Positions 46,630 through 51,385 of a DNA stretch of 64,000 nt are shown one piece after another. The position numbers and the translations under genes are program-made. Source of the DNA: a virus (Duplodnaviria; Heunggongvirae; Uroviricota; Caudoviricetes). Numbering within the stretch: the stretch's first letter is position 1; every line of letters begins with the position of its first letter. The stretch lies in IMG/VR virus record IMGVR_UViG_2519899835_000003; one strand, 5' to 3'. Below the pieces are notes generated by a model. That model had not been told where the DNA came from. It searched no databases and worked only from the letters and a program-made list of their open reading frames with translations.

Positions 46630-46890
46630 AATGACGCCCTCGAGTGGTTTCTTAATAACTCACCACCGACGACGCCAATCGTCTGGTGGTGAACTGTGCA
46701 GGGTTGGCGTAACCGGGAAACCGACCGGCGCGGATCTCTCCGCCCCCACACAGCCCACCATAATTCAGATGTGCGCGTGCATACGACAATAAAAAACACG
46801 CTCGCGGCGTGTATCTGTCGCGGTCTCTATCCAGGACGCCAATCCCGACGCCAGATTTTGCTGGCGCGTGAGGAATATAGCCCCGAATAA
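46630..46890 (-). repeat. Copy 1 of a ~260-bp structured leader upstream of an ORF6N gene
   Basis: Aligns with 48214-48475; shared hairpins with compensatory base changes; hairpin plus T-run at 46789-46812. Confidence 0.6.
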
Positions 46891-47547: not shown

Positions 47548-48213
47548 TCAGAATTCAAATTGTCTTGCCCGCAGGCTTTTCAGCATTGGCATGGCCCGCT
47601 GGATAACGGAACTTGACATGTCGAGACGTGTTACCTCCCTCAGTAGCGCGTCTCTGTTCTTCGTCACCATGTAGATGGTCTCAAACGCAATGTCATACAG
47701 CTTGTTCGTGTATGAGGAGTTCAGCTCTTTCATAATGGGATACAGGTGTTTGCTGATGTCCTGGGCTTTTTCCATCCAGAGCTGCATGTAGCAAAGGAGG
47801 ATGATTTCTTCGGCTGTGAATTGTGGCTGAATCTGCGGCTGCTGTTCGGTTGGTGCTGTTTTTCCCTGGCTGAAATAGCAGTCTTCCAGTTTTTCGAATA
47901 CCTCCCACGCCCGATCGGTTTCGAGCATTTTTGCGTGACGGGCTGCGCCGCGTTCTGTCCAGAGGATGAGGGAGCGGGCATTTTTACCAACTAACCCGAT
48001 TGTTTCGGGTCTGTTCTTAAACTCGCGTAATTCGTTTTTTTCAATTTTAAAGTAATGCTTTCCGGGCATGAATCGCGTCGTGTTGTTCAGAAAGTTATCA
48101 GAAATGTTTTTGATTTTTGTTCCGTAAAGGTGAGCCAACAGTTCAGTAGTAATTACGGGGATCTGGTTATAGGTAACAGGGGAAAGGTTTTCGACAGAAA
48201 TTTGAACAGCCAT
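47548..48213 (-). CDS. ORF6N domain antirepressor paralog with the shared C-terminal domain
   Basis: N-terminus like 45946-46629; C-terminus like the 2929-3558 protein. Confidence 0.75.
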   Translation of the reverse strand: MAVQISVENLSPVTYNQIPVITTELLAHLYGTKIKNISDNFLNNTTRFMPGKHYFKIEKNELREFKNRPETIGLVGKNARSLILWTERGAARHAKMLETDRAWEVFEKLEDCYFSQGKTAPTEQQPQIQPQFTAEEIILLCYMQLWMEKAQDISKHLYPIMKELNSSYTNKLYDIAFETIYMVTKNRDALLREVTRLDMSSSVIQRAMPMLKSLRARQFEF

Positions 48214-48475
48214 AATGACCTCGCGTTTCGATAATTTTTACCTCGCCACCGTCAGGTGCTAATCATCGTGGTGGCGAACTGTGCGGGGTTAGCACTACCG
48301 GTCGAAACATCCGGCGAGCCTTTCGGCTCCCCCACACAGCCCGCCATAAATCGCGAATGTGACTGTGCTTAGCGCATAAAAAAACCGCCAGCGCGGTTAT
48401 GCACCGTTTCGATATCCGGGGTGCTAATCCCGACGCCAGGTTTTGCTGGCGCGTGAGGAATATAGCCCCGAACAC
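48214..48475 (-). repeat. Copy 2 of the structured leader upstream of an ORF6N gene
   Basis: Homologous to 46630-46890; hairpin plus T-run at 48378-48398. Confidence 0.6.
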
Positions 48476-48555: not shown

Positions 48556-48926
48556 ATGCGCATTTTTAAAAACGCCTGGTTTGAGCGATTTGCACGCAAA
48601 ACAAAATATCCGACCAATCACTGCGCGAAATTGTTAAACAGGCTGATAACGGGCTTATCTCAGCAAACCTGGGTAACGGCGTTATCAAGCAACGTCTGCC
48701 ACGAGTCGGTGGCGGCAAATCTGGCGGTTATCGCACAATCATTTTCTATCGCGTCGGCACAAGGGCCTTTTTCGTATATGCATACGCAAAAAATGAACGT
48801 GAAAATATAACCGCTACTGCGGAAAGTGCATTTCGGAAGGCGGCTCCTCACGTACTCAATCTAACAGATGAACAACTGGCACAACTGATTCTACAGGGTC
48901 AGTTTACGGAGGTACCCAATGAGTAA
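48556..48926 (+). pseudogene. HigB/Gp49-like RelE-superfamily toxin gene disrupted by a frameshift
   Basis: N-terminus MRIFKNAWFERFARK in one frame; toxin-like C-terminus GGGKSGGYRTIIFYRVGTRAFFVYAYAKNERENIT in another frame with no start codon; shift in an A-tract near 48600. Confidence 0.55.
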
Positions 48927-49236
48927 AAATTACCGCAGTGATGCGCTTGCATCCGTACATGAAATGATGGAATCGCTTCATGATATCGGCGCAGTAACGA
49001 AACAGACTATGCGAGAATTCGATGAAACTTGTCTCCAGCCAGCGCCGGTAATGTCTCCGGAAAGGATCCGTGCACTGCGCGAACGAGAGCATCTGTCTCA
49101 ACCTGTTTTTGCCAGATACCTCAACGTCAGTAAAAACCTGATATCAGACTGGGAACGTGGTGTAAAACGGCCGGGAGGTGCCGCTCTTCGCCTTCTTTCA
49201 GTCGTAGAGAAAAACGGAATCCAGGTAATATCATGA
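48919..49236 (+). CDS. HigA-like XRE-family HTH antitoxin
   Basis: 105 aa; LSQPVFARYLNVSKNLISDWERGVKRPGGAALRLL; start overlaps the toxin stop. Confidence 0.7.
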   Translation: MSKNYRSDALASVHEMMESLHDIGAVTKQTMREFDETCLQPAPVMSPERIRALREREHLSQPVFARYLNVSKNLISDWERGVKRPGGAALRLLSVVEKNGIQVIS

Positions 49237-49286
49237 TACTCCAATACAACAAAACCCGCCGAAGCGGGTTTTCATTAGAAGCACCT

Positions 49287-49781
49287 TTAGTTTTGCTGTT
49301 CTATTTTAAGCTTGATAGTTTCATACAAAACAATAGTTGCGCCTGTTTTACATAATTCCCGGCTGTCATACGCACGAGACCAATAACACAACCAGTTCTC
49401 GAGATCTTCTCGAGTATAGGTTTTGCAGGCCAGTCCCTCTGCCATTTCCACGATTTCATCGCCTGGTGCTGTTAACTCATAGCCATTCAACAACAAGAAG
49501 ACATAACCAGCCATCATAGCTGTTCGTTTGTTTGCATTAGCAAATGGATGATTCTGAATCAGACTTTCAATCAATACTGATGCCAGTACAAACATGTCAT
49601 TAGTCTGTTCATACCATCGAACCATGCTGGGACGAGACTGAGAAGAACTTAAATTATCAACACTCAGCACACTAACAGGTTCATCTGGTGTTTGAAGCTC
49701 AATTAAAAGGCGATTAATTTCGGTAAGATCATCAAACGAAAGGTAGTGCACTCCTTCAACAATCTCAGCCATAGAGCACAA
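49287..49781 (-). CDS. Fic/Doc-family toxin
   Basis: HPFANANKRTA motif; TTG at 49781, ATG at 49772. Confidence 0.8.
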   Translation of the reverse strand: MCSMAEIVEGVHYLSFDDLTEINRLLIELQTPDEPVSVLSVDNLSSSQSRPSMVRWYEQTNDMFVLASVLIESLIQNHPFANANKRTAMMAGYVFLLLNGYELTAPGDEIVEMAEGLACKTYTREDLENWLCYWSRAYDSRELCKTGATIVLYETIKLKIEQQN

Positions 49782-49790
49782 TACCCATCA

Positions 49791-49970
49791 TTACACTTTT
49801 GAAAGTTCTTCCATTGCCTTCTCGTAACGAGAAAAACCGAAATCGAAAGCATTTTTCACCTGCTCACGATGAGTGCAATTTTCATCGATAGCCGGGCGCG
49901 GAGCTGCCACAACGCTTTTATCGCGAGGGGGAATAGTCAATCGCGGGTGTTTTTTTAGTGCGTAGCTCAT
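49791..49970 (-). CDS. Putative cognate antitoxin of the Fic/Doc protein
   Basis: 59-aa ORF ending 6 bp before the toxin start. Confidence 0.45.
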   Translation of the reverse strand: MSYALKKHPRLTIPPRDKSVVAAPRPAIDENCTHREQVKNAFDFGFSRYEKAMEELSKV

Positions 49971-50179
49971 TGGGTGTACCCTTACTTCTCCGTCCTGTTC
50001 TTTAACAAAAATCAAGTCAATACAAAATTAGTCAGGCTAATGTTGTTAGCATAGCCTAATACCAATCGTATTCACAACCACAGTAAGTGAAAAAACCCGC
50101 CGAAGCGGGTTAAGTGCGGGTGCGTTGAGGATGCCTGACACATCAGAGGTGGCGAGGGATTTCTCCCTCGCCGGGTCTC

Positions 50180-50335
50180 TTACTCCTCAGGTTCGTAAGC
50201 TGTGAAGACAGCAACCTCCGTCTGACCGGTTCGGATTCGTACCTCGCATAGGTCTTTCCTCGTTACCAGTGCCGTCACTACGACGGTAATACAGATGACG
50301 ATCAGGGCGACTAACATCGCCTTTTGCTGCTTCAT
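50180..50335 (-). CDS. hok: Hok/Gef-family type I toxin
   Basis: MKQQKAMLVALIVICITVVVTALVTRKDLCEVRIRTGQTEVAVFTAYEPEE, near-identical to HokC/Gef as recalled. Confidence 0.9.
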   Translation of the reverse strand: MKQQKAMLVALIVICITVVVTALVTRKDLCEVRIRTGQTEVAVFTAYEPEE

Positions 50336-50580
50336 AGCCTGCTTCTCCTTGCCTTTCGGCGCGTAAGAGGCTAACCTACATGTGTCTAGCATGAAATTGG
50401 CCTCAGATTAATGTTAGGCGTCTTGCAGGACGCGTAATGTTAACTGGGGTTTTTCTCTGTCTGCCTTACGGTGGCATGCCCGAGGCAGACAGCCTCAAGC
50501 ACCCGCAGCAATTCTACTTAACTCTCGCTTTACCGCAAACCGTTTTTACCCGATATGGGAATTCCCATATCGTAATGAAT

Positions 50581-50685
50581 TCAGTTCCCTAGTCGATCCA
50601 TCAAAAACACAACCAGGCAGTAAACGCCCACAACAGCAATAACAGCCAGCGCACCTTCCATTGCCAGTGATATATCATCCGACAT
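50581..50685 (-). CDS. Unannotated 34-aa hydrophobic peptide
   Basis: ATG with AGGAGGG upstream; MSDDISLAMEGALAVIAVVGVYCLVVFLMDRLGN. Confidence 0.3.
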   Translation of the reverse strand: MSDDISLAMEGALAVIAVVGVYCLVVFLMDRLGN

Positions 50686-50720
50686 ATTCCCTCCTTTGGT
50701 GTTAATCCCGGCGAACGTTT

Positions 50721-50804
50721 TTACCCCCACCGACAAATAACATATACTAAAAAAGTGATAGCCATAGCAACGCCTGTAATTGCAAATGCTTCAGGCCAGT
50801 TCAT
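50721..50804 (-). CDS. Unannotated 27-aa hydrophobic peptide coupled to the DUF551 gene
   Basis: MNWPEAFAITGVAMAITFLVYVICRWG; ATGA overlap with the DUF551 stop; degenerate copy at 7644. Confidence 0.3.
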   Translation of the reverse strand: MNWPEAFAITGVAMAITFLVYVICRWG

Positions 50805-51385
50805 TGGCGCACCTCCTGCGGCGGTTCTGGTAGCGGCATCCAGTCGGTTACATTGCGGCTCTGTGTTTCGAAAAATTCATCACCATCACGGACTACATCA
50901 AAAAACTCACCGTCTCGATATTGCGCATAAAGAACGAATGCGCCATCACATAAAATAATTACGTGCTGACCGTCATCCGGCATTCGCTCACTACAGCTTA
51001 TCCAACCATCCAGAGTTACCGGATGGTTGGTTGACGTTTCCGAGATTTCCCGAAAATTATTGGTTGACGAACCCTTCTTTTCCCGAAAGTTTCCAGCCTG
51101 AAGCATGGCGGCGCTGTCTGGCGGGGCAGCATATAGCGGCACGTATATTTCCGGTTCCTTATCAGCACCGGGTTGCTCTTCCAGTGAGAATGTCTTTCCG
51201 GTAAATCGATTCATATAAAGCACGGGCTCTGCTTCCAGCGAAGCCTGAGCAACAAGGGCCAGTGCTAAATCCAACTCAATTGCCTCGAGAGAATTTTTGA
51301 ATGCTGTCTGTTTTACTGCAAATTTCATCGCCTTTACATTTTCACTAACATGACTGATTAACTGCTCTTTTGTAAAAGTGGTCAT
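50801..51385 (-). CDS. DUF551 domain protein
   Basis: Start MTTFTKEQL preceded by the junction cassette; C-terminal WMPLPEPPQEVRQ. Confidence 0.6.
   Translation of the reverse strand: MTTFTKEQLISHVSENVKAMKFAVKQTAFKNSLEAIELDLALALVAQASLEAEPVLYMNRFTGKTFSLEEQPGADKEPEIYVPLYAAPPDSAAMLQAGNFREKKGSSTNNFREISETSTNHPVTLDGWISCSERMPDDGQHVIILCDGAFVLYAQYRDGEFFDVVRDGDEFFETQSRNVTDWMPLPEPPQEVRQ

Follow-up and report, generated by a model that had tools for sequence, protein, structure and literature searches.

Location and content of the block

The DNA analysed here is a 64,000-nt stretch (the window, to which all coordinates refer) of the tailed-virus record IMGVR_UViG_2519899835_000003 in IMG/VR, which carries a 2.25-kb block of small genes (48556-50804) within a lambdoid prophage. 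The block is flanked by replication genes on one side and ninB on the other, and comprises three toxin-antitoxin (TA) cassettes, one of which is dead, and two genes for tiny membrane peptides, designated p34 (34 aa) and p27 (27 aa) (Table 1). Over 3.2 kb around the block, the chromosome of Escherichia coli FORC_069 and three sister strains showed 100% identity to the window, and E. coli O104:H4 showed 98.6% identity over the same 3.2 kb.

According to the RefSeq annotation of the FORC_069 record, the early-right operon of the prophage lies on the minus strand of the window in the order CII, replication genes, DUF1627, DUF977, DUF551, the block, ORF6N antirepressor, NinB, NinE ... Q. The original prediction had described a nin-proximal TA cluster with two short membrane peptides, and this placement was right, with DUF1627, DUF977, and DUF551 on one side and the ORF6N antirepressor and ninB on the other. 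All of the elements that it listed within 2.3 kb are present, and its TA assignments (HigB-like with a frameshift, Doc, and Hok) agreed with profile and structure matches; the interval that it gave, 49287-50804, leaves the HigBA pair outside. The RefSeq record annotates every element of the block except the 27-aa open reading frame (ORF), p27. The TA cassettes are ordinary and common, and most are already named by the Prokaryotic Genome Annotation Pipeline; what is modestly new is the p27 family, the linkage of p34 to hok, and the non-Phd partner of Doc.

Table 1. Features of the block and of the adjoining DUF551 gene in the window
Feature	Position	Strand	Basis and remarks
higB2-like toxin pseudogene (Pfam RelE PF06296)	48556..48926	+	Frames 48556-... 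and 48588-48926, split by a lost A
higA2-like helix-turn-helix (HTH) antitoxin, intact, 105 aa	48919..49236	+	HTH_3; phrog_2104 3e-43; PDB HigA-2 5jaa 8e-8
Hairpin terminator between convergent higA and doc	49251..49272	.	Structure and repeat scan; left copy of the 20-nt repeat AAAACCCGCCGAAGCGGGTT
Doc (death-on-curing, Fic-fold) toxin, 161 aa	49287..49772	-	TIGR01550 1.3e-35; PDB 9vzc 1e-12; P1 Doc 3k33 1e-4
Putative Doc antitoxin, 59 aa	49791..49970	-	phrog_2208; 18 nt upstream of doc
Full-length hok mRNA, 413 nt	50092..50504	-	+1 at 50504; RF01794; fold; terminator
hok terminator	50094-50111	-	Hairpin
hok fold-back (fbi) element	50117-50130	-	Predicted fold
hok, 51 aa, RefSeq 'HokD'	50180-50335	-	PF01848 1.4e-23; phrog_251 5e-32
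mok, 70 aa, in frame with hok and covering it	50180..50392	-	Same layout as mokW/hokW
Sok antisense RNA, by homology to annotated sokW of 933W	50384..50454	+	Predicted promoter TTGCCT-17-TAACCT, 50350-50378
Predicted hok promoter, TTGCGG and TAGAAT, 16-nt spacer	50538-50533 and 50516-50511	-	Read from sequence
Perfect 22-bp palindrome CGATATGGGAATTCCCATATCG	50551..50572	.	47 nt upstream of hok +1; unique in the window, 0 expected by chance
p34, 34-aa single-pass membrane microprotein (MSDDISLAMEGALAVIAVVGVYCLVVFLMDRLGN)	50581..50685	-	AGGAGG 4 nt upstream of ATG
p27, 27-aa single-pass membrane microprotein (MNWPEAFAITGVAMAITFLVYVICRWG)	50721..50804	-	AGGAGG 7 nt upstream
DUF551-domain protein	50801..51385	-	Last codons (QEVRQ) hold the p27 Shine-Dalgarno sequence

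A decaying higB2-higA2 pair

Two frames share the match of the toxin gene to PF06296: the one opening at 48556 covers positions 1-34 of the profile, and the one at 48588-48926 covers positions 15-120. Such a split is the signature of a frameshift. When one A was added to the run at 48598-48601, the repaired toxin was best matched by P0092 (123 aa, 654 contigs, 98% identity), an intact E. coli homologue that reads FARKNKISDQ across the junction, as does the repaired translation; the window sequence has thus lost one A from this run. No ATG, GTG, or TTG start codon was found in the downstream frame. The frameshift is common to O104:H4, AST198, and phage PhiR12_3, and O104:H4 and AST198 carry an additional 1-nt deletion. 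This shared lesion, together with the second indels in relatives, marks the HigB2-like gene as a pseudogene that is still decaying. Rescue of HigB by programmed -1 frameshifting at ACA-AAA-U was considered unlikely, given the lack of a canonical slippery heptamer or stimulator and the second disabling indel in relatives.

The antitoxin gene is intact, and its start overlaps the toxin stop by 8 nt. The closest solved structures were Vibrio cholerae HigB-2 for the repaired toxin (0.005) and HigA-2 for the antitoxin (8e-8), which supports the label 'HigB-like' given in the original prediction; the frameshifted toxin and its antitoxin were borne out by the two-frame profile match, the comparison with P0092, and the intact HTH protein. 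The window pair shares with V. cholerae higB2-higA2 the toxin-first order with a downstream HTH antitoxin, a RelE-fold PF06296 toxin, and an antitoxin with a C-terminal HTH and an N-terminal extension, but the RelE-fold toxin ORF is frameshifted and the antitoxin/repressor alone is intact. RefSeq presents 48588-48926 as an intact coding sequence (CDS) for a 112-aa 'RelE/ParE family toxin' with an ATT start, and the O104:H4 annotation contains only a 68-aa HigB fragment, neither with a pseudogene flag. TA censuses relying on the ATT-start CDS would miscount a dead toxin.

A Doc toxin with a non-Phd partner

The catalytic loop of the Doc protein is intact, with HPFANANKR aligned to HIFNDANKR of P1 Doc. 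Its 59-aa partner, encoded just upstream, does not belong to the Phd/YefM family: no match was found in Pfam, NCBIfam, or PDB, and phrog_2208 (function not known) was the sole match. The partner family is small, consisting of 17 clusters, all with at least 66% identity, in Escherichia, Salmonella, and Ewingella. A partner gene of 59-62 aa lies 6-18 nt upstream of a Fic/Doc gene both in the window and in three divergent members that were looked up, whose surroundings are tail and baseplate genes of an Ewingella myovirus prophage, dinI plus umuDC, and Salmonella hok/parDE/vapBC, respectively. The gene pair is thus conserved in four unrelated contexts, including the window. In the alignment of the partners, the N-terminal half is variable and the C-terminal 24 residues are almost invariant; the AlphaFold model predicts disorder at the N-terminus and a single helix with high confidence (residues 34-57, predicted local distance difference test score 84-93). 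This predicted anatomy resembles that of type II antitoxins which, like Phd, use a C-terminal helix to bind the toxin, and from the near-invariance of the modelled helix we infer that the partner would neutralise Doc. The Fic/Doc toxin of the original prediction was accordingly found with an intact loop, a TIGR01550 match, and a conserved pair, with the antitoxin role of the partner being putative.

By sequence comparison, the pair resembles phd-doc in layout, with an antitoxin that is not a Phd homologue. Shared with P1 phd-doc are the antitoxin-first operon, the Fic-type HxFx(D/N)ANKR loop, and a partner with a predicted C-terminal helix and a disordered remainder. In contrast, the window partner has neither detectable similarity to Phd/YefM nor a predicted DNA-binding fold, and the window Doc is 161 aa long whereas P1 Doc is 126 aa long. 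A survey of E. coli TA loci had already noted Fic toxins with uncatalogued partners (PMC10790755). The present partner, with no relative among known antitoxins, is a further case of mix-and-match in type II systems and an easy structural target. A relative of the partner/Doc pair stands in a denser TA pile in two Salmonella enterica contigs (L016, 1-6180, and L017), where hok, parDE, and vapBC lie side by side and adjoin DUF1391 and DUF1187 prophage genes.

The Doc cassette has a GC content of about 40-43%, against 47-53% in its flanks, and is bracketed by a perfect 20-nt direct repeat of AAAACCCGCCGAAGCGGGTT at 49251-49270 and 50092-50111, 841 nt apart. One copy forms the terminator hairpin of doc, and the other forms that of hok. 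A repeat bracketing a low-GC 841-bp cassette suggests that the cassette was inserted or exchanged by recombination at the terminator.

The hok/mok/sok locus

The Rfam sok/hok-leader family RF01794 was matched over its full length (model positions 1-157) at 50330-50504, with 110 bits against a gathering threshold of 59. As this 'sok' model lies on the hok-sense strand, the match is evidence for the leader/sok region only, and Sok itself was placed on the opposite strand through phage 933W: the Sok region and its promoter are identical to 933W sokW at 131 of 142 nt. Sok is predicted to fold into a long hairpin, preceded by a single-stranded 5' tail of 15 nt and followed by a U tail (z = -5.4). 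In the minimum-free-energy fold of the hok mRNA (50504-50092), nt 1-12 pair with CCUCAACGCACCC just before the terminator (z = -6.3). With a toxin ORF of about 50 aa, an upstream mok frame, a putative antisense Sok with promoter and terminator, and a predicted fold-back, the locus looks complete. Both the Hok/Gef type I toxin that had been proposed (PF01848, mok, and RF01794) and the sok-like antisense RNA that was to be sought, here placed by homology, were thereby recovered. Further Rfam candidates (rsmX, istR, and isrK) at 49248-49338 and 50090-50177 were rejected, as their scores did not reach the gathering thresholds and their positions are those of the two terminator hairpins.

The locus shares the Hok/Gef domain, the upstream mok extension, the Sok 5' tail with terminator hairpin, and the 5'-3' fold-back with hok/mok/sok of plasmid R1 and with hokW/mokW/sokW of 933W, to which its sequence is about 92% identical. 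Unlike the 933W locus, which is next to int/xis, it lies in the early-right (nin) region, and unlike the classical locus it is preceded by a 22-bp palindrome and the p34 ORF. Among the copies of the palindrome CGATATGGGAATTCCCATATCG in other phage contigs, 23 of 27 were located 47 or 65 nt upstream of hok +1, whether p34 was present or not. Without a U-tract, the palindrome is not readily seen as a terminator, and it may serve as an operator or as an insulating hairpin.

A third, unrelated hydrophobic ORF was observed in four IMG/VR contigs (L177, L179, L190, and L198) in which p27 and p34 are missing. It encodes 59 aa with two hydrophobic stretches (MKNALQFLFVAFWLF...FMAVMCIEYWR) and ends about 89 nt upstream of hok +1. 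Approximately 60% of the distinct hok upstream regions, in a partly biased sample, contain a small hydrophobic ORF with a Shine-Dalgarno sequence within 130 nt.

Two membrane-peptide genes

The two short hydrophobic ORFs with good ribosome-binding sites that had been predicted are as described: AGGAGG stands upstream of each, and the best 19-residue Kyte-Doolittle means are 2.72 (p34) and 2.32 (p27). The start codon of p27 and the stop codon of the DUF551 gene overlap in the sequence ATGA, and the final codons of the DUF551 gene contain the AGGAGG of p27. The homologue in 933W (MTWPEAFANVGTVMAVVLVVYSICRWR) keeps the ATGA arrangement behind a different upstream gene and in diverged DNA; homology is clear at the protein level only, and the DNA alignment (MAFFT) failed over the diverged p27 region.

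A translated search found p27 in 92 phage records. In the seven annotation tables inspected (RefSeq for the window and six phage records), p27 was not annotated; the 933W table, which reports only features overlapping the stretch, was not counted among them. The six phage records include lambdoid Shiga toxin phages, the P1-like vB_EcoM-813R1, and the rV5-like virulent phage Av-05, and in all six the ORF begins exactly at the stop of the upstream CDS. A few GenBank records elsewhere call it 'bacteriophage protein'. Common gene callers have a default minimum of roughly 90 nt, and p27, at 84 nt including the stop, falls below it, which is plausibly why it is unannotated. The upstream partner is mostly a DUF551/Ea22-type protein, but at least two unrelated families also occur in this position. 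Among the 120 viral contigs listed, 41 had hok within 900 nt downstream of p27, so the association of p27 with hok is not obligatory.

To evaluate coding constraint, viral contigs were scanned with a DNA pattern fixing only codons 1-6 and 25-26 of p27, which gave at least 120 contigs; the ORF had exactly 27 codons in 120/120 of the matches listed. A relaxed pattern applied to one genome per bacterial species gave 35 matches. Eight of these (Escherichia, Shigella, and tiny, probably contaminant contigs) all had 27 codons, and the other 27, from unrelated bacteria, were ORFs of other lengths and served as a built-in negative control. Over the unconstrained codons 7-24, 54 unique DNA sequences (32 peptides) showed a synonymous divergence (pS) of 0.415 and a nonsynonymous divergence (pN) of 0.173, a ratio of 0.42. 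Pairwise differences at codon positions 1, 2, and 3 numbered 5528, 2956, and 9950, and both other frames were closed by stops in every sequence. The constant length, pN/pS ratio, codon-position bias, and closed alternative frames mark p27 as a real gene.

Two of the tiny contigs, assigned to Xanthomonas pisi (L147, 431 nt) and Acinetobacter idrijaensis (L165, 369 nt), carry the E. coli-phage p27 with its typical upstream sequence CAGGAGGTGAATCA; these copies are probably assembly contamination and not from true hosts. Apparent cluster-mates of the two peptides, namely 121-aa DUF551 proteins and a 789-aa xanthine dehydrogenase, were artefacts; a DUF551-p27 fusion does not exist, as P0063 ends in QEVNQ. 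Hundreds of E. coli genomes (O157:H7 and O104:H4 among them) and phages of three lineages carry the 27-aa gene, and it is almost entirely missing from annotation.

The claim that both ORFs are unannotated held for p27 in this record and failed for p34, which is WP_001278450.1 in RefSeq and ECs_5710 in prophage Sp6 of E. coli O157:H7 Sakai. The order in Sp6 is DUF551, p27, p34, and mok/hok, as in the window. The entry XECs145 of Hücker et al. 2017 (PMC5597208) includes the p34 ORF; those authors classed the entry as 'real' and predicted that it localises to the inner membrane. Their ribosome profiling gave XECs145 346 reads per kilobase per million mapped reads (RPKM), a ribosome coverage value (RCV) of 4.35, and a coverage of 0.99 in lysogeny broth (LB), and an RPKM of 150 and an RCV of 1.14 in brain heart infusion, with expression essentially off under cold and osmotic stress (PMC5597208); these values call for caution, in that they come from a multi-copy region of Sakai and the 162-nt interval also covers the 3' end of p27. 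The same study considered ORFs of at least 30 aa only, which placed p27 outside its scope (PMC5597208).

A second subfamily of p34 was found in phages Evi and HannyBb and in several viral contigs. Its members have 29 aa (MLVLKCALAIAAVMAIYCLAVVLMDRLSD), a GTG start, and a conserved GGAGG 5 nt upstream, and show about 47-50% protein identity to p34. For the p34 family, pN/pS was 0.48 (15 unique sequences). This coding constraint argues that p34, too, is a real gene.

Searches of both peptides against Pfam, NCBIfam, PHROGs, and PADLOC gave sub-threshold noise only (POT, OadG-related, SecE, and phrog_38566). Neither appears in the supplements of a survey of the Enterobacteriaceae microproteome (PMC11188072), and a full-text literature search for the motif WPEAF found nothing relevant. 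No Rfam family was matched over p27 or p34, and antisense promoter-like sites there were at chance level. That one or both ORFs are chance occurrences, or are conserved for non-coding RNA or DNA signals, would suit their very short length, the lack of a family match, and the position of p27 below gene-caller length limits. We consider this very improbable and largely refuted by the fixed 27 codons, the pN/pS of 0.42, the codon-position counts, and the closed frames of p27, by the other ORF lengths of all 27 chance matches in unrelated bacteria, and by the pN/pS of 0.48 and the published ribosome footprints of p34.

Both peptides resemble small single-pass membrane proteins of E. coli and its prophages (regulatory microproteins; TisB, Ldr, and Ibs) in their length of 27-34 aa, single hydrophobic helix, strong Shine-Dalgarno sequence, and location on a mobile element. 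They differ from these in that they show no sequence similarity to them and no antisense RNA was detected. A type I toxin has a cognate antisense small RNA and is not translated during growth, whereas p34 had an RCV of 4.35 in LB, an expression comparison that concerns p34 only; its strong translation in a lysogen that was not induced (PMC5597208) is not what a repressed type I toxin would show. The p27 ORF is predicted to be translationally coupled to a larger gene, which sets it apart from the small membrane proteins named above.

Linkage of p34 to hok

In every informative copy of both subfamilies, the stop of the p34-family gene was located 42 or 76 nt upstream of hok +1. Among 5426 complete E. 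coli genomes, the set used for all module frequencies, p34 was joined to the hok leader in 667 and to p27 in 671, and the leader occurred alone in more than 3800. Between p27 and the hok promoter, the p34 gene is therefore an optional segment, about 175 bp long, that is either present or absent, and where present it is always at hok. Two IMG/VR contigs (L186 and L183) retain a remnant of the C-terminus of the second subfamily (...FMDHLSD*) 42 nt upstream of hok +1, which indicates that the peptide gene can be lost and hok kept.

One explanation is that p34 is an unrecognised accessory of phage-borne hok/sok and not an unrelated moron, either tempering or potentiating Hok or acting as a leader-like ORF that insulates the hok promoter. 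The fixed distance is consistent with this, as it holds although the subfamilies are only about 47-50% identical and the adjacent hok genes are 86-100% identical; so are the genome counts (667 with p34 joined to the hok leader and 671 with p34 joined to p27) and the remnant that stays beside hok in L186. However, most such hok loci lack p34 (leader in more than 3800 genomes, p34 in about 670), the classical R1 hok/sok works without it, and the linkage could simply reflect one old insertion inherited with hok, in samples dominated by near-identical copies. We regard an accessory role as doubtful.

A broader proposal would make the p34 family a hok/sok companion that acts with or on Hok at the membrane, and p27 a widespread functional microprotein coupled to Ea22/DUF551 early genes. 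Under this proposal, p34 and its 29-34-aa relatives would be, for example, a protein-level brake on Hok or an exclusion factor, and p27 would be a gene of lambdoid, P1-like, and rV5-like phages that has been missed systematically below gene-caller length limits. As a joint statement we rate it as rather improbable. The tight linkage of the p34 family to hok nevertheless provides a concrete hypothesis on a well-studied type I system.

Independent cassettes or one island

Module frequencies in the E. coli genomes were strongly unequal: 32 genomes had the whole 3.2 kb, 125 had the Doc cassette, 217 had HigBA (mostly a different allele), about 671 had the two peptides, and more than 3800 had the hok leader. 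Together with the dead toxin, the repeat-marked borders of the Doc cassette, and the lack of a defence match, these frequencies make accretion of selfish cassettes the most economical explanation. The block is thus probably a recombination-built pile of independent accessory cassettes in a variable slot between the replication genes and ninB, and not one co-evolved system.

The original prediction had proposed an addiction or abortive-infection island; its location and TA assignments stood, and the coherence of the island did not, in view of the independent distributions, the dead toxin, the repeat borders, and the PADLOC result. As a dedicated anti-phage island, the block would protect the host through abortive infection, with the TA modules and membrane peptides as effectors. 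In favour of this, Hok/Sok and several type II TA modules are reported to exclude phages, accessory genes are known to occupy this slot, TA genes are packed more densely still in the Salmonella relative (hok, Doc, ParDE, and VapBC), and p34, like defence morons, is expressed in the lysogen. Against this, comparison of the encoded proteins with the PADLOC-DB v2 defence models gave generic HTH and weak Fic and ORF6N matches only, the modules are distributed independently among E. coli genomes, one toxin is a lineage-wide pseudogene undergoing further decay, and nothing links the modules mechanistically. Nothing here supports a dedicated island specifically, and we consider it unlikely.

Several observations also weigh against the explanation by independent cassettes. 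The constant spacing between p34 and hok in subfamilies so diverged hints at a functional link between the two. The AlphaFold model of the Doc partner contains no recognisable DNA-binding fold, and type II-style autoregulation is not evident. A promoter scan gave 5 sites against 4.7 expected from shuffles, with none for the Doc operon or p34 above chance.

The observed gene integrity and decay, cis-elements, modular distribution, and coding constraint on both peptides frame a mechanistic scheme for the independent cassettes. The dead HigB2-like toxin would leave its HTH antitoxin/repressor as an orphan. By analogy with P1 Doc, the Doc toxin would phosphorylate elongation factor Tu and halt translation, and the C-terminal helix of an unstable 59-aa partner would hold it in check. 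As in R1 hok/sok, a stable, folded-back hok mRNA would be silenced by short-lived Sok, and cells that stop making Sok would be killed. The p34 product would be a constitutively translated inner-membrane peptide whose gene travels just upstream of the hok promoter, and the p27 product an inner-membrane peptide whose translation is coupled to that of the DUF551/Ea22-type gene before it; both presumably act by binding a membrane protein, which could be a host protein or, for p34, Hok itself. The live cassettes (hok/sok and Doc) would be mainly selfish, keeping themselves and the prophage in the lineage, and phage exclusion may be a side benefit.

Antisense control elements near the block

Two tandem sets of a C4-type antisense RNA, isrK, and a1/b1 target elements, with scores that all exceed the Rfam gathering thresholds, were detected on the minus strand at 46682-46880 and 48267-48465. 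An antirepressor-type gene is found downstream of each set (Ant, and ORF6N/P22_AR_C at 47548-48213), and a near-consensus promoter (TTGACA-18-TATATT) was found at 48488-48459. Judged by these matches, the sets represent control of ant in the style of P1/P7 immI, which here occurs in duplicate within the nin region of a lambdoid prophage.

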